The notes under the pieces are model-generated. The model was not told where the DNA came from. It did not search any database and saw only the letters and a list, made by a program, of their open reading frames with translations. The position numbers were made by a program, and so were the translations under genes. A stretch of DNA of 64,000 nt from Terriglobia bacterium. Lineage in GTDB: Bacteria > Acidobacteriota > Polarisedimenticolia > Polarisedimenticolales > JAIQFR01. Below, piece after piece: positions 11,833-24,655 of the stretch. Within the stretch, counting starts at the first letter, position 1, and every line of letters begins with the position of its first letter. The stretch is from contig CAVVHE010000009.1 in the NCBI GenBank assembly GCA_963748015.1, positions 448,001-512,000 on the forward strand, in the 5' to 3' direction.

Positions 11833-12852
11833 TCACGCCACTTCGGAGCCCCGGTTGCGCGAGAAGCGGCGCCGCATCAGGTACGAGGCCATGCGCGACT
11901 GGGTCGAGTCGCCCGCGCCGTGGCCGAGGTCCTCGGCGAGGCGGAACGCGCTGAGGTGCACGACGCGCCCGCTCTCGACGAGCGCCGCGCCGACGAGCCG
12001 CCTCCCCGAGATCCGCACGTCCTCTCCCATGGCGAGAGCCGGGAACGCCTCCATCCTAGCGTCGGCCAGCTCGTCCAGGAACGCGCGCGCCGCCTCGGAC
12101 GGCGGGACGGCGCTCGGCGCCTCCGCCGTCTCGACCGCGTCGAGGGCGTAGCTGCGGACGAGCTTGGCCATGAGGATGCCGAGCGTCTCGGGGTGGTCGA
12201 ACAGCTCCACCCCGGCGACGCGGCCGTCGAGCACGAACACCGCCCCCGCCTGCGCCTCCACGGGCCGCAGCGCGGCGACGTATCCCTCGAGATCGGCCGA
12301 CCTCTGGTGGTAGGCCTCCGCCATCGCGCTCGTCGGGCTCGAGACCCCCATCCTCGCGTGCTTCGCGTGGATGTCGCTCCAGATCGCGCCCTGGTCGGCG
12401 CGGCGCCCCTGCCCGCTCGACAGCGACGCGCTGACCTGCTCCACCTTGCGCGCGCGCCCCGAGTAGTAGATGAAGTCGGAGGAGCACTCGAACGCCCTCG
12501 AGCGCCCGGCCCACCGCCCCGCCTCGACGCACGAGACCGGGATGACGAGCGTCTTCCCTCCGGCGACCAGCAAAGTGAGGTTGAGGACGCGGTTCTGCTT
12601 CGCCCCCTTCAGCTCCTCGCCGTCCACGAGGAGCACCGGGTCGGACCCGTCGTTGGCGAACATCAGGTTGGGGACGCTTCCGGCTTCGCTGACCTCGGTG
12701 ACGCGCGCCGAGCCCGCCTTCAGCGCCTCCTCGAGCGTGCGGTACCCCCTCTCCCCCGGCGGCTTCCCGATGAGGGGGAAGACGGTCAGGTTGCGGTGGG
12801 TGACCGCGGGTCCGATGGTGAACGACCGAATCGCCTCACGAAGGGTCTCCAT
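11833..12852 (-). CDS. ARPP-1/DUF6569-family protein
   Basis: NLTVFPL, GEELKGAKQNRVLN, IPVSCVEAGRW, SYALDA motifs. Confidence 0.8.
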   Translation of the reverse strand: METLREAIRSFTIGPAVTHRNLTVFPLIGKPPGERGYRTLEEALKAGSARVTEVSEAGSVPNLMFANDGSDPVLLVDGEELKGAKQNRVLNLTLLVAGGKTLVIPVSCVEAGRWAGRSRAFECSSDFIYYSGRARKVEQVSASLSSGQGRRADQGAIWSDIHAKHARMGVSSPTSAMAEAYHQRSADLEGYVAALRPVEAQAGAVFVLDGRVAGVELFDHPETLGILMAKLVRSYALDAVETAEAPSAVPPSEAARAFLDELADARMEAFPALAMGEDVRISGRRLVGAALVESGRVVHLSAFRLAEDLGHGAGDSTQSRMASYLMRRRFSRNRGSEVA

Positions 12853-12897
12853 ATCGAGCCTCCTCCTCGGGGCGGGATCTCCACAAAGGTGACCGAA

Positions 12898-13018
12898 TTA
12901 ACCCCGAGGTAAAAAGACCGGGAACACCACCGGCGGGCCCCAAGCGAAAAGCCGCCGAAAATGTTTGACTTTCGTCCCCCGTCGATGCAAATTTACAGTG
13001 GAGTTAAGAATGTGTCAA
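12898..13018 (-). promoter_or_regulatory. Promoter of the ARPP-1 gene with two TTAAC-N6-GTAAA boxes
   Basis: TTGACA (13018-13013)-N17-TAAATT (12995-12990); boxes at 12898-12913 and 12992-13007. Confidence 0.6.
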
Positions 13019-13070
13019 GTCGGCGCGGTCCTTTTTTTTACCGGTTAAGTCGACCGGATAGCCGCATACA

Positions 13071-14045
13071 ATGGCCCGGATGGACCCCGGTCAACCCAGA
13101 TCTCCTCGCAGGAGATCGTTCTCCGAGAGCAGCCTCCCGCTGCCCGAGCGAATTCGCCGCAGGCGCCTCTCGCTGAACCTCGCGGGACAGGAGCTGGCCG
13201 AGCGGGCGGGGGTGTCGCCGGCCTACATCTCGCTGATCGAGAAGGGCGTCAAGATCCCGAGCCAGGATGTCGCGGCGGCGATCGCGAAGGCGCTCAAGGA
13301 CGAGCCCGAGTTGTACCGCGCGTGGGCGCAGTCCGGGCGGACCGGGGACATGGAGACGGCCTGGGCGCAGCTGCACAACGCGCGGCGCTATTACCGGGAC
13401 GCGTCGCTGCGCCAAAGGCTGGCGAGCGGAGCGGATCTCCCGGAGAACGAACTGCCGCATGACGAATCCGCTCTCGAGAGCAACCGGCTCGAGGCCGAGC
13501 AGGACCGGGTAGAGCGAGTACGGATGGAGTCTGCGGACCGAGCCTTCCCGTCCACGGTTGGATCCTGGTTGGCCAAGGTCACCGGTATGCACGCGCGGCC
13601 GAGGCAGGAGACGGCACTCCTCGAGATCCCGGTGCTCGAGGACGGCGACGACCCCGGTCCCGGGCCGATCCATCCCGACGTCGTCGTGGACGTGCTGCGT
13701 CTCGACCCTCGACTCGTCGGCCGCGGCCTGCCCCTGCGTCCGTTCGCCTATCGCCTGGGCGAGGACACGATCGAGCGGGTGCGCGACCTGTTCCGGCCCG
13801 GGGACTGGGTCGTGCTCGACTCGCGCCCGGGAGAGTTGACCGCCGACCGGGTTCACGCGGTGCGGTTCATGGGCCGGGTCGTCCTGAGCCGCGTTCTCGC
13901 CAAGCGCGACTCGCTGCTGCTGCTCCCGAGCGAGGGGCGCAGCGACGTCCGCGTGCTGGACCTCGAGCCGGGAGAACTCGCGGACCGGTTCATCGTAGGA
14001 AATGTCGTGCTGACCGTCCGCGGGGAAGGCCCGCCGACCGACTGA
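13071..14045 (+). CDS. XRE-HTH repressor with C-terminal S24-like domain
   Basis: IRRRRLSLNLAGQELAERAGVSPAYISLIEKG HTH; C-terminal IPVL...FAYRL...PGDWVVLD...IVGNVV. Confidence 0.8.
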   Translation: MARMDPGQPRSPRRRSFSESSLPLPERIRRRRLSLNLAGQELAERAGVSPAYISLIEKGVKIPSQDVAAAIAKALKDEPELYRAWAQSGRTGDMETAWAQLHNARRYYRDASLRQRLASGADLPENELPHDESALESNRLEAEQDRVERVRMESADRAFPSTVGSWLAKVTGMHARPRQETALLEIPVLEDGDDPGPGPIHPDVVVDVLRLDPRLVGRGLPLRPFAYRLGEDTIERVRDLFRPGDWVVLDSRPGELTADRVHAVRFMGRVVLSRVLAKRDSLLLLPSEGRSDVRVLDLEPGELADRFIVGNVVLTVRGEGPPTD

Positions 14046-16141: not shown

Positions 16142-16332
16142 GGGAGAGGCGGCCCGGTCCCTGGCGGGTCGGGCCGCGCCGCGTTCCATCCGCTCGATAG
16201 ACGGCCGCGCTCACCGGCCGGGGTTCCCTCCGCGCAACCCGGATGTGTGCGCCGACTGGTCGCGTTCGGGCGTTTCCGTCGATATTCGATCTCCGTGGCG
16301 CGCGAGGCCGCCGGGGCCTCCCGGCGGCGGTG

Positions 16333-16369
16333 TTGACGGAGGGACGCGACGTGAGTACATTGTGCTTAC
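16333..16369 (+). promoter_or_regulatory. TA operon promoter with palindromic operator
   Basis: TTGACG (16333)-N17-TACATT (16356), overlapped by the imperfect palindrome GTGAGTACA-T-TGTGCTTAC. Confidence 0.7.
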
Positions 16370-16386
16370 ACCCGGAGACAGGATCC

Positions 16387-16638
16387 ATGAGGGCGCGTCT
16401 CGTCCGCATCGGAAACTCGCGAGGCGTCCGGCTCCCCAAGCCGGTGATCGAAGAGGCTGGGCTCTCGGAGGACGTGGAGATCCGCGTGAAGGACGGCGCG
16501 GTGGTCATCACGCCGGCCGCCCGCCCGCGCGCCGGCTGGGCCGACGCCGCCCGGCGGGCTCGCTCGCGTGAGGACGATCTCCCGCTCGAGGCTCCGACCC
16601 CGACCCGGTTCGACGACGAGGAATGGCGGTGGAGGTAG
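16387..16638 (+). CDS. mazE: AbrB/MazE-family antitoxin
   Basis: RIGNSRGVRLPK motif, acidic C-terminus FDDEEW. Confidence 0.9.
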   Translation: MRARLVRIGNSRGVRLPKPVIEEAGLSEDVEIRVKDGAVVITPAARPRAGWADAARRARSREDDLPLEAPTPTRFDDEEWRWR

Positions 16639-16964
16639 GAACGGGCGTCCGCCGCGGCGAGGTGTTCCTCGTGAACCTCGCTCCCGCCCGCGGCGGCGAG
16701 ATCCGCAAGGCGCGGCCGTGCGTGGTCGTGTCCCCCGACGAGCTGAACGCCCACCTGCGCACGTTCCTCGTCGCCCCGATGACGACGGGCGGCCACCCTT
16801 ATCCGTTCAGGATCTCGTGCCGCTTCCAGGGGAAGGCCGGCGCCGTCGTCCTCGACCAGCTCCGCGCCGTGGACCGGGAGAGGCTGGCCAGGCGCCTCGG
16901 GAGGATCTCGCCCTCGACCCTCGCGCGGGCGCTCGCCGTGCTTCAGGAGATGTTCGCTCCCTAG
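16623..16964 (+). CDS. mazF: PemK/MazF endoribonuclease toxin
   Basis: RGEVFLVNL.P..GGEIRKARPCVVVSPDELN, DQLRAVDRERL. Confidence 0.92.
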   Translation: MAVEVGTGVRRGEVFLVNLAPARGGEIRKARPCVVVSPDELNAHLRTFLVAPMTTGGHPYPFRISCRFQGKAGAVVLDQLRAVDRERLARRLGRISPSTLARALAVLQEMFAP

Positions 16965-17034
16965 TCCGACGGCGAGCCCCGCCTCGAGGAGGTCCGCCGG
17001 CGGCTCGATCCTGCCGTGAACCCGGAGGTCGCCC

Positions 17035-17790
17035 ATGAGTGACGAAGCGAGCGCGCAGCGTCGATCGGGACGGACGCGAGCGATCCAATCCCTTCGCCGA
17101 ATCGTCAGGCTCTTCCGGAACAAGACGAAGCCCCACTACCCGAGGCTTCATCGCTGGCGGCGCGTGAGCGACGACGACGTCTGGAACCTCGTGATCGGCC
17201 AGGTGAGCGTGGTCGGAAGCGCCGCGTCCGGAGAGCGGCTGCTGTCGTCGAGGACGGCGATGAGCGCGCTCCGGTACCGGCGGCTCCTCCGGCTGAACGC
17301 CGCGGCGCGCACGCGCGAGATCCACCGCTTGCTCCGCGCCCACGGCGTGCGCTACGTGACCCTCGAGCCGGCGAAGTGCGCAAAGACCCGAGCCCTGGTC
17401 CGGAATTTCGCGCTCCTCGAGGAATACCCGGGCGGGCCGGCCGGTTACATCCGCCATCTAGCGGCCCTGCCCGGCGAGGAAGACCGTATCGCCCGCGTCT
17501 CGAAGGACCTCGCCTTCATCAAGCTCAAGGGCTCCCGCGACTTCCTGGCCGAGCTCGGTCTCGCGACGGACGTCATCGCGTTCGACGTCCGCGTGCTGGG
17601 GATCCTCCGGGCGCTGGGGTTGAAGCTCGCGCCGAACACGACGTCCAGCCGCAAGAGCTACGAGCGGCTGCAGGCGATGCTGCTGCGCGAGGTGTGCGCG
17701 CCCGAGGGCGTCACCGGCGTGGTCCTGGACCGCATCCTGTTCTGGAACGCGGCCGAGATTCATCGGGCGATCGAGCGCGGGGCGCTTTAG
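17035..17790 (+). CDS. HhH N-glycosylase/AP-lyase-like protein (OGG2-like)
   Basis: IKLKGSRDFLAELG...IAFDVRVL and YERLQ...LDRILFW resemble the OGG2 HhH Lys/Asp region. Confidence 0.55.
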   Translation: MSDEASAQRRSGRTRAIQSLRRIVRLFRNKTKPHYPRLHRWRRVSDDDVWNLVIGQVSVVGSAASGERLLSSRTAMSALRYRRLLRLNAAARTREIHRLLRAHGVRYVTLEPAKCAKTRALVRNFALLEEYPGGPAGYIRHLAALPGEEDRIARVSKDLAFIKLKGSRDFLAELGLATDVIAFDVRVLGILRALGLKLAPNTTSSRKSYERLQAMLLREVCAPEGVTGVVLDRILFWNAAEIHRAIERGAL

Positions 17791-17791
17791 G

Positions 17792-17881
17792 AAAACCCGG
17801 TACCTCGCCGGCAAACGCGGGGACGACTTGGCGCCGGGCACGCTCAAGAGTATCTTCAGGCGCACGAGGCTGAAGCCGTGA
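17792..17881 (+). pseudogene. hicA: hicA toxin C-terminal remnant
   Basis: LAGKRGDDLAPGTLKSIFRRTRLKP* matches the HicA C-terminus; GTGA overlap with hicB; N-terminus with GSH motif absent. Confidence 0.75.
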
Positions 17882-18090
17882 GATACCTCATCGTCATCGA
17901 AAAGAGCAAGGCCGGGTTTTCGGCGTACTCGCCCGACCTACCAGGCTGCGTCGCGACGGGGTCCACCAAGACTCGGGCCGAGAGGGCGATGCGAGAGGCG
18001 ATCAAGTTCCACCTGGAAGGGCTTCGGGCCGAAGGGCGGAGGGTCCCATCTCCTCGAAGCTCCTCGGCCTACGTCGAGTTTCCAGCCTGA
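17878..18090 (+). CDS. hicB: HicB-family antitoxin
   Basis: YLIVIEK...FSAYSPDLPGCVATG...REAIKFHLEGL. Confidence 0.92.
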   Translation: MRYLIVIEKSKAGFSAYSPDLPGCVATGSTKTRAERAMREAIKFHLEGLRAEGRRVPSPRSSSAYVEFPA

Positions 18091-18151: not shown

Positions 18152-18556
18152 TCATGTCCCAGAGAATTCTCCGATCGAGACGGCGAGCTTCGGAAACGCG
18201 GCGAGGACCTCGGCGTCCGAGGTGACGAGCGGGACGCCGAGCTGCTCGGCGAGGGCCACGAACTCGCAGTCGTAGGCCGAGCACCGGGACGCCGCGGCGA
18301 GTGCGAGCACACGCTCGGACTCGACGAGGTACTCCGACCCCGCGAGAAGCGTCTCGGCCTCCCGCATCACGAGAAGAGCGTCCGCGAGGGCCAGCCGCTT
18401 GCGCCTGAGGTGCGCGGCGAGCACGCTGCGAAACTCGCTGCGCCAAAGCAGGGGCGCCGCCCACGCGGGGTCCTTCAGGAACGCCGCGCGCGCCTGGGGG
18501 GTCGCGTCGCCGCCCAGCAGCAGGTACGCGAGGGCGTTAGTGTCCACGACGATCAC
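18152..18556 (-). CDS. vapC: VapC PIN-domain toxin
   Basis: IVVDTN, SEF, SAYDCEFVALA, LVTSD PIN motifs. Confidence 0.9.
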   Translation of the reverse strand: MIVVDTNALAYLLLGGDATPQARAAFLKDPAWAAPLLWRSEFRSVLAAHLRRKRLALADALLVMREAETLLAGSEYLVESERVLALAAASRCSAYDCEFVALAEQLGVPLVTSDAEVLAAFPKLAVSIGEFSGT

Positions 18557-18796
18557 GGCCGCCCCGCCTCCCTGGCCTTTTTCAGGGTCCTCGCGGTGAA
18601 CGGCGGCAGCGCCAGCCGCTCGCGCAGGGCGTCGGCCCTCGCCAGGAACTCCGCGGGATCCACCGGCCGCGCCGCCGAGCGAGGTCTCCAGCCGCTCGAG
18701 GATCTCGCTGTTGAGGCTCCGCCGCTGTGCCGCCGCGATCCGCTTCAACCGCGCATAGAGCGGGCCCGGGATGTTCTTGAGGGTCAGGGTCGGCAT
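18553..18796 (-). pseudogene. Arc/RHH (FitA-like) antitoxin, frameshifted near 18670
   Basis: MPTLTLKNIP...RRSLNSEI in one frame and PVDPAEFLARADALRERL...AGRP* in another; span 244 nt (3n+1). Confidence 0.75.
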
Positions 18797-19113
18797 GGTC
18801 CCGTGCTCTCCGGATGGTTCCAAAATGGAACCATTCCGGAGTCTACCGCTGCCCGCCAGTCCGGTCAACCGCGGCATGTTGGCTCTCGGGAGGAGGGCCC
18901 GCTGTGTGTCGCCGCCTGCGCGGCGGACGCCCGGGAGGGACCGTTCGAAATGTAGTTTTCCGGGATCCCAGCCGCCAGGGGAAGCACCGAATCATGGGAA
19001 GCTCTATTGCGGTGGCGCAACGACGGGGAATCCCGCTGTAGCATTCCCCCTTCAGGGCCGTTCCCGGCTGCGTCGCCAGGCGAAGCGAAACCTCGAGCCC
19101 GACCGGAGGCCCC

Positions 19114-20415
19114 ATGAACCGCAAGTGCCGCGTGTACCTCGCCGGCCCGATCTCGGGCTGCAACGACGACCAGCGCCGCCGGTGGCGCGACAAGTTCAAG
19201 AGCATGTTCGGCCGCGAGGTGGGGTTCGAGGACCCGGCGTCGTGGGGGGACAACTGGGAGCCCGAGCGGGAAGTCGGCGCGCTCGAGATCAGCGACGTGG
19301 TGGTCGCGAACATGTGGCGCGAGTCGATCGGGACCACGATCGGCGTCATCCACGCGCGCCTGCGCGGGATCCCCGTCGTCCTCGTGGACCCGAACTACCT
19401 CAAGAACCGGATCGTCCAGGGCTGGATCGCGCCCGAGACCCCCGTCCACTCGCTGGACGAGGCCAAGGCGCGGGTCCAGGCCATCCTGGCGACCCTCGAG
19501 CCGGTCCGCGAGGTGGTCAAGAAGAACGGGACCACCGTGCCGTTCTCGCGGCAGAAGCTCGTCCGCTCGATCCGCACCGCCTGCGCCGCCGCCGGCGTCG
19601 AGGATCCGTACCTCCCCACGCTCCTCGTCAACGACGTGATGCGGCGGCTGCGGCCGGAGCCCGGGAGCGCCGCCGTCAGGACCGAGGACGTCAAGGAGGC
19701 GATCCACCGCACCCTCGACGAGGTCGGGCGGAGCACGATCTACCGGCGCACGATGAAGGACGAGGCGGCGGCCGTGCGCGAGGCGTGGAAGAAGCGCGAG
19801 GAGTACAAGACCGCCGAGGAGCTGTTCGACGAGGCGGTCTCGCGCGTCAAGGCGCTCGAGGCCGAGAACGAATTGCTCCGCGCGAACCAGTCCGCGATGG
19901 CGGCCGCTGTTCCCGCCGCGGAGCCTCCCGCCGAGCCCCCGCACGCGAAGTGGACGTGCCTCGCCGACGCCGTCCGCGCGGCGGAGGGGCAGTTCGGGGC
20001 CGAGCTGGAGTTCCTCCCGCGGGCGCTGCGCTCCGCCGAGGACTCCCCGTTCGCCCAGCCCGCCCGCGCGTTCCAGGCCCTCAAGGCGCTCGCCGCCTGC
20101 GCTCGCGACCGGAGGGCCGCCCGCTCCACCGGCCGCCAGGTCCCCGGCATGCGAACTTGGTTCGCGCGGCACCGGTCGGCGGCCCCCTGGCTCGAGTACA
20201 AGGCCGGCGAGAGCGAGGTGACCATGAACAAGTGGGGCGACGAGCGCGAGTTCACCCACGACGGCCGCAAGGTCGAGATGCAGCAGCACCTCGCCATCGG
20301 CGCCGGCAAGCCCGAAAGCACGCTCCGGATCTACTTCTGCCCCCACCCCGACCCCGCGCGGGCGGAGTTCCTGATCGGGCACGTGGGGCGGCATCCCAGG
20401 AATACGAAGAAGTAG
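19114..20415 (+). CDS. Multidomain protein: deoxyribosyltransferase-like fold + ATP-cone + coiled coil + toxin-like C-terminal domain
   Basis: VYLAGPISG...SDVVVAN...GTT; VVKKNGTTVPFSRQKL...VRTEDVKEAI; C-terminal HLAIG...LRIYF...IGHVGRH. Confidence 0.75.
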   Translation: MNRKCRVYLAGPISGCNDDQRRRWRDKFKSMFGREVGFEDPASWGDNWEPEREVGALEISDVVVANMWRESIGTTIGVIHARLRGIPVVLVDPNYLKNRIVQGWIAPETPVHSLDEAKARVQAILATLEPVREVVKKNGTTVPFSRQKLVRSIRTACAAAGVEDPYLPTLLVNDVMRRLRPEPGSAAVRTEDVKEAIHRTLDEVGRSTIYRRTMKDEAAAVREAWKKREEYKTAEELFDEAVSRVKALEAENELLRANQSAMAAAVPAAEPPAEPPHAKWTCLADAVRAAEGQFGAELEFLPRALRSAEDSPFAQPARAFQALKALAACARDRRAARSTGRQVPGMRTWFARHRSAAPWLEYKAGESEVTMNKWGDEREFTHDGRKVEMQQHLAIGAGKPESTLRIYFCPHPDPARAEFLIGHVGRHPRNTKK

Positions 20416-20519: not shown

Positions 20520-21593
20520 CTATCGCGCCCCGGCGGCAAGGACTTCACGCCAACCCGTTAAGAGACGCTCGTAGGTCTTTCCGCCTGCCCACACACGCCC
20601 GCCGGCTCTTTCGACCTGGCCAAACGCCCACGACGCGATTTGTACGGACGCGTCGAGATCATGGGGAGCGCGGATCCGCGAGAACTCCGCTTCTAGGGTC
20701 GGACGGTGATCTTCGTTCCTCCGCACCCAACGCTCCAAGAACGCGATCTGCGGCAGGAAGTCGCTCTTTTGCGCGTTGCATGAAGTGTCGGCTAGCACGA
20801 AGTTGTGCGCGAGGTCGACAGGGTAACGGCTCCAGGGCACCAGATGGTCCACCGGCGCGTCGCGCGAAAGCGTGCGCGCGCAATAGAAGCACTCGCCTTT
20901 CTGGGTTTCGCGTAGCACGGGCCGGATGTCCCCGAGGGTCGAGCGCTCGGTACCGAACAGGAACTCGTGAAGGTCCGTCGCCTGTCCGAGCAATTCCTGA
21001 TTCGCCTTCAGTTTGCGGACGAAGTCCGCCCAGGCGGCGCGTGCCATGCCGGTGACCAGAGGGTGGAATCGCCGAAGATTGAACGCGACACCCGATTTGA
21101 GCGTGATGGAGCGGCCACGACCCTTGTTGTCGTAGAGAAAATCCAGCAATCGCCCGGGCAGGCGTTGAAGCTTCCAGAGTGGCTGATTGCTCGTGCGGGC
21201 TGCGACGAAGGAAACCAGTGATCGCCATTCTCTCGCGTTGCGGCGAACTTCCACCTCGTATCGCGACACGCTCTCCCTGACTTCGAGCACCCGGTGCAGA
21301 ATCGCCGCGGTATTTCCCGTGTTCTGCGCCAGGACGCCGGGCGCCGTTCTCCGACCCGCCGGCGTCCACGGAACGACCTGATCCCAGTAGAGTGAGACGA
21401 ATCTCTCCGCGATGCGACTCACCGGGACCTCGAGAGGCTCGCCGCTGTCGTTCCCCGTCTCGACGGCGATGTCCGCGAGCGCGACGAGCAACGCGAACTT
21501 GTACGTCGCGGTGAACTGACCCTCGTTGAGGAGTGTCTGAAAATTCTCGAGGAACCGGATCTGTTCCTCGGGGGTCGGCGGCGAGTGCGTCAT
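20520..21593 (-). CDS. HNH endonuclease
   Basis: TATYKFALL N-terminal motif; CFYC...VDHLVPWSRY...NFVLADTSCNAQKSD; less GC-biased codons. Confidence 0.88.
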   Translation of the reverse strand: MTHSPPTPEEQIRFLENFQTLLNEGQFTATYKFALLVALADIAVETGNDSGEPLEVPVSRIAERFVSLYWDQVVPWTPAGRRTAPGVLAQNTGNTAAILHRVLEVRESVSRYEVEVRRNAREWRSLVSFVAARTSNQPLWKLQRLPGRLLDFLYDNKGRGRSITLKSGVAFNLRRFHPLVTGMARAAWADFVRKLKANQELLGQATDLHEFLFGTERSTLGDIRPVLRETQKGECFYCARTLSRDAPVDHLVPWSRYPVDLAHNFVLADTSCNAQKSDFLPQIAFLERWVRRNEDHRPTLEAEFSRIRAPHDLDASVQIASWAFGQVERAGGRVWAGGKTYERLLTGWREVLAAGAR

Positions 21594-21976
21594 CGCTTGG
21601 TCCAGTAATCCGCCTTGTGGGGCAGGATCCACCTTACGCCACCGCGGGGATCGTCGCGGTCTCCCTTGAAGCGCGGAACGAGGTGAACGTGCAGATGTGG
21701 AACCGTCTGGCCAGCGGCGGGCCCGTCGTTGACTCCGATGTTGTAGCCGTCGGGGCGATGATCGAGCTCGACGATTCGCTTCGCCTGCTCGAGGGCCGAG
21801 AGGAGAGCCGACCTCTCCGCGAGCGTCGTCTCGAAGAACGACGCGACGTGCCGGCGGGGGATCACGAGAGCGTGCCCGGGCGAGATCGGGAATCCGTCGC
21901 GCAGCACGAAGACGAGGTCGTCCTCGTACAGCACGCGGGCGCGGTCGGGCTCGCAGAAGGGACAACGGTCGCTCAA
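21590..21976 (-). CDS. HIT-family hydrolase
   Basis: CPFC, PGHALVIPRRH, GQTVPHLHVHLVPR; TTG start; overlaps the HNH start. Confidence 0.92.
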   Translation of the reverse strand: MSDRCPFCEPDRARVLYEDDLVFVLRDGFPISPGHALVIPRRHVASFFETTLAERSALLSALEQAKRIVELDHRPDGYNIGVNDGPAAGQTVPHLHVHLVPRFKGDRDDPRGGVRWILPHKADYWTKR

Positions 21977-22130
21977 CGACGGGACCTCTTCGGCCAGCGA
22001 GAGGCGTAATCTACCACTATCGGCGCTCCGTTCTAGCTGCGAACGCTGGCATGATCGGCAGTTCCTCACGGGCCTCGATATGACACACTCCCCCCTAGCC
22101 TCCACCTCCCGCCGGCAGTAAACTCTCCTC

Positions 22131-22275
22131 GACATCCGGAGCGGCCCGCGGGTGCGGGCCCGGCAACCTGGGACGGACATCCCAAGGTGCCTTCCCGGAA
22201 CCGGACTCGGGGCGACCCGGGGACGGGGACGGGAGATGTGGTCCCGGCGAGGCGCCGGGGCAACCAAGTGTCCGG
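22131..22275 (+). ncRNA. SAM-I/IV-type riboswitch
   Basis: P1 ACATC/GATGT; GGCAACC...GGTGCC P3 signature; P5 hairpin 22241-22261; L3 CGGACA pairs with 3' TGTCCG (PK-2); SD-sequestering hairpin before ATG 22325. Confidence 0.8.
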
Positions 22276-23824: not shown

Positions 23825-24655
23825 ATGGCCCTCATGCCCCGCGACCTTGCCGCCCGCCGCGGCCGCGAGACGGTGGAGATCCTGGAAGCTCGCGGCTACA
23901 TCGCACCGTCGGGGAAACGGGTGGACCTCGCCGCCGCGCTGGATCGCGCGGTTCGCGGGACCGAGACGTACCCTCCGGAGCGCGGCGCACCAGCGCCTGG
24001 GACGAGGCATGGCGCCGCCGCCATCACGGTCGAGAACGACGTCGTCCTGGACGTCGCCGCCCGCCTCGCGCGCCACGGCCGGGTGGTCGCGCTCAACTTC
24101 GCGTCGGCGACCAGTCCCGGCGGCGGGTTCCTCACCGGCGCCCGCGCCCAGGAGGAGTCGATCGCTCGGTCCTCGGGTCTCTACGCCTGCCTCGAAGGCA
24201 ACCCGATGTACGACCACCATCGCGGCCGGCTCGATGCGATGTACTCGGATTACGTCATCTACTCGCCGGACGTGCCGGTGTTCCGAACGGACGGCGGCGA
24301 CCTGCTCGAGGAGCCCTATTCCTGCTCCATCCTCACTTCACCGGCGCCGCAGGCCTACGCACTCCGCAAATATCAGCCGGAGCGCCTCCCCCGGATCGAG
24401 GCGGCGCTCCGCTCCCGCATCGCGAAGGTCCTCGCGGCCGGCGCGGCGCACGGCCACGACACGATCATCCTCGGCGCCTGGGGTTGCGGCGCATTCGGCA
24501 ACGACCCCGAGCTGGTGGCGCGGCTCTTCGACGAGGCGATCTCCGGGAACTTCCTCGGTGTGTATCGCGAGATCGTGTTCGCGATCCTGGACCTCTGGCC
24601 GGACAGGCGGACCATCGGGCCGTTCGAGCGGAGGTTCGGCGCGGCGGCGAGCTGA
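23825..24655 (+). CDS. TIGR02452/DUF2263 bacterial PARG-like macrodomain protein
   Basis: LNFASATSPGGGFLTGARAQEE and ILGAWGCGAFGNDP motifs. Confidence 0.92.
   Translation: MALMPRDLAARRGRETVEILEARGYIAPSGKRVDLAAALDRAVRGTETYPPERGAPAPGTRHGAAAITVENDVVLDVAARLARHGRVVALNFASATSPGGGFLTGARAQEESIARSSGLYACLEGNPMYDHHRGRLDAMYSDYVIYSPDVPVFRTDGGDLLEEPYSCSILTSPAPQAYALRKYQPERLPRIEAALRSRIAKVLAAGAAHGHDTIILGAWGCGAFGNDPELVARLFDEAISGNFLGVYREIVFAILDLWPDRRTIGPFERRFGAAAS

Follow-up and report, generated by a model that had tools for sequence, protein, structure and literature searches.

What does a bacterium gain from joining, in one gene, a nucleoside deoxyribosyltransferase (NDT)-like fold that lacks its catalytic residue, an ATP-cone and a toxin-like domain? 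The question is raised by a 433-aa protein encoded on contig CAVVHE010000009.1 (GCA_963748015.1) of an Acidobacteriota genome, in a 64-kb stretch of DNA that was analysed as a whole and is called the window here. A sequence-only reading had proposed a single-gene defence protein in which two nucleotide sensors, the NDT-like fold and the ATP-cone, gate a RelE-like nuclease in response to phage-driven shifts in dNTPs, with a coiled coil lying between cone and C-terminal domain. We find that the front domain lacks its nucleophile and keeps its pocket residues, and that relatives in several phyla carry repeatedly exchanged tails on this fixed front end.

Front domain, cone and tail

PDB fold searches found a flavodoxin-like NDT fold in the N-terminal domain. 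The catalytic Glu normally lies six residues past the phosphate Ser (S98 and E104 in DNPH1). Here it is replaced by G77, within the motif GTTIG, and Gly occupies this position in 150 of 162 homologues and Glu in four, in a register for nucleophile and triad that was taken from a weak alignment (E 0.09). Viral stand-alone relatives have Glu at this position in 19/19 cases. The NDT triad of Tyr, acid and phosphate Ser is retained (Y8 in 158/162, Asp or Glu at position 53 in 146/162, S71 in 162/162). W24 and R25 are invariant (162/162), and E70 is kept in 149 of the 162. The front domain is a glycosidase fold without the nucleophile, as the missing Glu of the motif had indicated, and its pocket residues are retained.

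The second domain scores above the curated cut-off of Pfam PF03477 and also has the ATP-cone fold, its closest resemblance being to the cone of NrdR. V134, K136 and K148 correspond to NrdR V48, K50 and K62, which are required for nucleotide binding (PMC9110341), and they are conserved in 149, 147 and 142 of 162 homologues. In an AlphaFold2 model built from a 53-row alignment (pLDDT 91.4, pTM 0.58), the protein consists of an alpha/beta domain (residues 4–128), the cone (about 131–206), a single helix (212–265), a linker and a C-domain (283–425); the coiled coil that had been read from the sequence corresponds to the single long helix. Prediction of a homodimer with ATP scored 0.06, which is evidence in neither direction.

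PADLOC matches were confined to the C-terminal half. Residues 215–430 matched HEC-07 (PDLC04161, E 7e-14), over profile positions 339–550 of 553 only, and residues 282–427 matched NsnC (E 1e-10), in agreement with the proposed toxin-like domain. Searching with the C-domain region gave nine proteins, among them P0025, which shares 44% identity across the domain and is itself HEC-07-like (PADLOC HEC-07 E 3e-45). At the level of sequence, these matches establish that the tail is homologous both to the RelE-like domain at the C-terminus of HEC-07 and to NsnC. The HEC-07 C-domain, in which a His is conserved, has been likened to HP0892, an RNase of the RelE family, and HEC-07 was one of seven systems that reduced plaquing, HEC-01 and HEC-09 being the exceptions (Payne et al., 2024; bioRxiv 10.1101/2024.01.29.577857). 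Nine of 15 NsnC tails are BECR RNases according to Li et al. (PMC12065111). In two further proteins (P0030, P0031) a HEC-07-type C-domain is joined to a third, distinct front end that contains a long coiled coil.

Conservation was scored over 40 family tails and nine other proteins bearing the same domain (n = 49). H427 is present in 49/49 sequences, H392 in 48/49, R405 in 44/49 and H423 in 28/49. The spacing of H392 and H427 is 35 residues, compared with 37 for H50 and H87, the catalytic residues of YafQ (PMC4652777), an equivalence that was judged by eye. The order of elements in the model, strand-helix-helix followed by three C-terminal strands, fits the BECR fold (a helix and a four-stranded antiparallel sheet) by eye, and comparison with YafQ profiles was negative. 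Based on the HEC-07 homology and this motif pattern, the tail is predicted to adopt a RelE-like RNase fold. In five PDB fold searches and a BFVD search with full-length models, matches to the N-domain and the cone took up the whole of the lists.

Coordinates are collected in Table 1. The frame 19114–20415 (+) holds 433 open codons. A promoter scan found no site for this gene and one site on the opposite strand, and no tRNA was found in the window. Three RNA runs yielded short contigs only, the best of 263 nt at 99%, by which transcription is not shown. Relative to L081 there are 9 synonymous and 8 non-synonymous changes, a count used for no reading.

Table 1. Coordinates of the gene, its upstream element and its domains in the window
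Feature	Position	Strand	Basis
Single gene, 433 aa: NDT-like domain, ATP-cone, long helix, HEC-07/NsnC-type C-domain	19114..20415	+	sequence, profile matches, model
Shine-Dalgarno-like GGAGG, ATG starting 4 nt later; same element in L081 upstream region	19105..19109	+	sequence
NDT/DNPH1/MilB-fold domain, residues 4-128; Y8, E53, S71 retained; G77 (codon 19342-19344) at nucleophile position	19123..19497	+	fold search, alignment register, 162 homologues
ATP-cone, residues 131-206	19504..19731	+	Pfam PF03477, fold, homologue conservation
Long helix, predicted coiled coil, residues 212-265; then low-confidence Pro/Ala linker	19747..19908	+	AlphaFold2 model
Predicted BECR/RelE-like RNase domain, residues 281-433, common to HEC-07 and NsnC; H392 (20287-89), R405 (20326-28), H427 (20392-94)	19954..20412	+	PADLOC, alignment

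Exchanged tails on a fixed front end

When 1.84 billion representatives were searched with a profile, 136 proteins reached E ≤ 1e-30. We retained 80 metagenome loci, and 58 loci come from named genomes belonging to Acidobacteriota, Gemmatimonadota, Planctomycetota, Nitrospirota, Pseudomonadota, Armatimonadota and Actinomycetota. Parvivirga hydrogeniphila is the one cultured, named species with a family member (WP_267192888.1). The census of tails of at least 80 residues, redundancy included, comprised 205 tails in six multi-member classes (KSH 110, HEC-07 type 50, GLRH 22, then 10, 3 and 2) and eight singletons. By eye, a HEPN-like RNxxxH motif can be made out in one singleton; five are apparently frameshifted or cut and were excluded from the tree.

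The tree was built from the front end alone by an LG+G4 quick search, with 117 of 194 rows kept on dereplication. Tail class requires 15 changes on this tree against a minimum of 8, and strongly supported sister pairs bear different tails. Approximately unbiased (AU) tests, chosen once the tree had been seen but with classes defined beforehand, rejected a single clade for each of two types, the HEC-07-type tail (p 0.0005) and the GLRH tail (p 0.0002). They used a subset of 54 rows, 29 of them of the HEC-07 tail type and six KSH, with one long branch dropped. We conclude that tails were exchanged repeatedly on a fixed NDT-cone front end across several phyla.

The commonest tail of the family differs from that of the window protein: it is a separate domain, KSH ("KSH..IEGK"), that is not visible from the window sequence alone. 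It is about 115 aa long (e.g., L027:8718-9092), with conserved H262, W266, G326 and Q338 (P0033 numbering). Its model is confident and shows a helix, four strands and a helix, an order that resembles BECR only by eye. The 20 matches of a KSH domain search are all 358–391 aa long, which is the length class of the present family, and 15 of the 20 bear a Pfam label for NDT or cone. KSH had no family match, and its ESM Atlas scores were all under 0.8. The GLRH tail (e.g., L106:3009-3368) is conserved and alpha/beta-looking; its RH motif is invariant, and neither PDB nor Pfam gave a match. The 10-member class matched the RelE/ParE model TIGR02683 in 3/3 tails tested (E 2e-5 to 4e-3) and phrog_3445 "toxin" in 2/3. 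When the tail classes were compared by hhalign with YafQ, with a HigB neighbour and with each other, all comparisons were negative save a weak link of the window protein's tail to this RelE/ParE-like class (probability 29–31%, E 5-6e-4). Tail-only profiles gave no or chance matches to PDB sequences, Pfam returned nothing meaningful for 24 tail fragments, and an ESM Atlas search with P0001 gave no usable match.

Distribution and gene neighbourhood

The gene is present in 3 of 41 close relatives, a count that includes its own genome and a match (G002) covering residues 1–77 only, and in 5 of 401 genomes phylum-wide. Its spread is patchy. A search of a phage collection found no match and one of plasmids two partial matches. 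Over the 58 loci, no neighbour is conserved past the synteny of close kin, and the window gene is likewise without a conserved small neighbour or cognate antitoxin. It is a one-gene system with no conserved partner gene.

Defence, toxin-antitoxin (TA) or nuclease Pfam labels were found on 16 of 97 adjacent genes vs 5 of 90 genes at least 4 kb off (Fisher p 0.02), in mostly KSH-type loci whose gene calls and labels are our own and were assigned after the matches had been seen, with kin that are not independent. RmuC, UvrD, AAA_5 and Lhr are ambiguous and did not enter the defence counts. PADLOC was run, without a control set, on neighbours at 25 non-KSH loci of the 80 from metagenomes, covering 86 of 118 listed neighbours (24 loci). 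At E ≤ 1e-20, 9/24 loci were positive (PDC-S41, HEC-05, AbiU/Uzume, PDC-M61, type I restriction-modification and others). Matches to mad2/mad3 at L091 and L095 were set aside, since they reflect a housekeeping ABC protein and methyltransferase. At L018:4979-6679, a HEC-07-like gene lies immediately downstream of a GLRH-tail member, and a helicase-like gene comes next.

In the window, the gene is flanked by MazEF, HicB and PIN genes on one side and by an HNH gene on the other. The segments 16243-18090 and 20520-22267 around it contain MazE/MazF, an unassigned 251-aa ORF (17035-17790), HicB, the HNH_4 nuclease and a HIT hydrolase. The PIN-toxin gene (Pfam PIN; 18152-18796, minus strand) is joined in frame by an upstream antitoxin-like ORF starting MPTLTLKN. 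Possibly the remaining antitoxin-like sequence lies in another frame, through a frameshift or a sequencing error. Two ADP-ribose-related families are also represented near the locus, by an ARPP-1 gene oriented divergently to an XRE/HTH regulator (11833-14045) and by a microbial-type PARG gene (23825-24655).

The window HNH gene also occurs at locus L038, with 70% DNA identity. There (L038:8001-11186), the allele of our gene ends after codon 76, and the next genes, Schlafen-AlbA/RecG-C and HNH_2, are encoded by the opposite strand. The position of these two genes between the cut allele and the shared HNH gene suggests a site of turnover.

Proposed function and its alternatives

The reading that we favour, with a probability of about 0.58, is a one-gene sensor-effector in which the pseudo-NDT domain and the cone would form a two-input nucleotide sensor that gates the predicted RelE-like RNase in abortive anti-phage defence. 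The pseudo-NDT pocket would bind a nucleoside 5′-monophosphate without cleaving it; the phosphate serine is retained as in DNPH1 and MilB, and Y8 points to the deoxy form. The cone would distinguish ATP from dATP, as the cones of NrdR and ribonucleotide reductases do. Once host DNA is degraded in the course of infection, or synthesis of deoxynucleoside triphosphates (dNTPs) is driven up by it, a rise in deoxynucleoside monophosphates (dNMPs) and dATP would shift the oligomeric state of the sensor. The long helix would relay this change to the tail, which, once released, would cut RNA using H392/H427 and stop translation. Since the tail folds are unrelated, gating by oligomer state or geometry would be likelier than a specific fold-back antitoxin contact. 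The swapped tails, the patchy spread, the lack of a partner gene and some enrichment near defence genes fit a single-gene defence protein, as had been supposed from the sequence.

Several points weigh against this reading. The commonest tail (KSH, 110/205) and the GLRH tail (22) are without an assigned function. The RelE assignment of the window protein's tail is indirect, because hhalign against 13 YafQ proteins gave no match (probability 0.5%) and PDB profile, Pfam, PHROGs and NCBIfam searches with this tail found nothing; nor was there a direct sequence or structure match to any solved RelE-family protein. In the cone, three of four contact residues are retained; V142 occupies the place of NrdR E56, a position that is Glu in 115/162 relatives, and ribonucleotide reductase chain 5IM3 likewise has Val there. 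Position 77 is Glu in four homologues and Asp in two, and the nucleophile site is therefore not dead in every family member. PADLOC defence neighbours occurred at no more than 2 of the 11 metagenome loci that carry this type of tail, and the surroundings of L001 and L002 are transport and housekeeping genes. The quick tree search, the AU tests chosen after it and the neighbour labels assigned by ourselves count on the same side.

The scarcity of PADLOC neighbours also bears on the possibility that the same anatomy responds to general nucleotide or energy stress, such as ATP/ADP/dATP imbalance or oxidised or modified dNMPs, as a self-contained dormancy toxin resembling a fused toxin-antitoxin, and is no phage defence. 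The many TA neighbours (MazEF, HicB and PIN in the window; Fic, HigB and DUF433/DUF5615 elsewhere) agree with this, as does the binding of ADP by NrdR cones (PMC9110341). We nevertheless consider it unlikely, as repeated tail exchange, rarity and a tail common to HEC-07 and NsnC would be more typical of conflict systems. The NDT-like domain might, with carboxylates from E70 and E53/D, be an altered enzyme that produces or removes a nucleotide signal, or else a recogniser of a phage protein, with the cone only tuning it. The conservation of E70 and of an acid at position 53 would suit such an enzyme, as would the few members with Glu or Asp at 77, and from the effector of retron Ec86 it is clear that an NDT fold can play an active part in defence. 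However, E70 and position 77 do not covary, all four members with E77 have E70 too, and E70 aligns next to the phosphate serine, away from the nucleophile position. A separate toxin tail also makes an NDT effector role less necessary, and we regard this alternative as improbable.

The protein could also be an orphan receptor-effector, like SLOG/CARF effectors, for an immune second messenger made by another system (TIR-derived ADP-ribose isomers, cyclic oligonucleotides). This we think very unlikely, as the 58 loci have no conserved partner gene and SMODS, ThsB-TIR and Cmr2-type Cas10 were not found in its own, 100%-complete genome, in a search of these three families that did not extend to Csm1 and Pycsar. 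Some JGI entries are named "NrdR family protein", which, with a cone most like that of NrdR, would suit an NrdR-like or metabolic regulator. Yet the protein has no N-terminal Zn-ribbon and scores 17 bits with the NrdR model TIGR00244 vs a cut-off of 125, its genome encodes a genuine NrdR elsewhere (G000:C4), and its distribution is patchy, so that a regulator of this kind is extremely improbable.

The one-gene sensor-effector that we favour resembles several known systems in part. Like HEC-07 it is a single gene with a long helix and a RelE/HP0892-like C-domain with a conserved C-terminal His (bioRxiv 10.1101/2024.01.29.577857), but the front of HEC-07 is AdoMetDC-like and thioredoxin-like, compared with a pseudo-NDT domain, a cone and an exchangeable tail here. 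With NsnC of Menshen it shares the C-domain match and the plan of an inactive enzyme-fold N-terminus with polymorphic, mostly BECR, C-terminal effectors (PMC12065111); NsnC, in contrast, has an inactive PIN domain and requires NsnA/NsnB, whereas nucleotide-binding folds and no conserved partner are found here. The nucleophile Glu of the NDT/DNPH1 (Rcl)/MilB enzymes and the retron Ec86 effector (DNPH1 E104, MilB E103, Ec86 E106) is Gly here, the domain forms the sensor part of a toxin fusion, and a retron reverse transcriptase is not a conserved neighbour. The cone scores above the PF03477 cut-off and retains the V/K/K contacts as in NrdR and ribonucleotide reductases (PMC9110341), but is fused to a toxin-like tail instead of a Zn-ribbon or reductase and has Val at the E56 equivalent. 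Gabija and the m6-dAMP-sensing PUA-Cal-HAD also treat changes in nucleotide pools or dNMPs as danger signals (bioRxiv 10.64898/2026.01.15.699771), with other sensor folds and effectors.

The protein is a member of neither HEC-07, NsnC, the NDT enzymes nor NrdR. PADLOC 2.0.0 has no full-length model for the architecture, which is also undescribed in the full-text literature searched, a body that lacks most subscription papers; the HEC and Menshen supplements could list it. This agrees with the earlier impression that it is not a named system. The sensor module is apparently undescribed so far, the single-gene sensor-effector plan itself being of a known kind, and we are likely dealing with an unnamed defence family. 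More tentatively, its members may be "metabolic guards", in which a co-opted ATP-cone, the master switch of ribonucleotide reductase, and a disarmed dNMP glycosidase detect the dATP/dNMP surge caused by phage and are coupled to at least six interchangeable effectors.

If the proposed function is correct, this would be the first use of an ATP-cone as an immune sensor within the literature searched. The triggers of most abortive-infection systems are open, and the family offers two candidate signals, a (deoxy)nucleoside monophosphate in the pseudo-enzyme pocket and the ATP/dATP ratio in the cone. The two inputs should be separable by single point mutants, the binding residues of the cone being known from NrdR, and the fixed sensor leads to new putative effector domains, KSH and GLRH.
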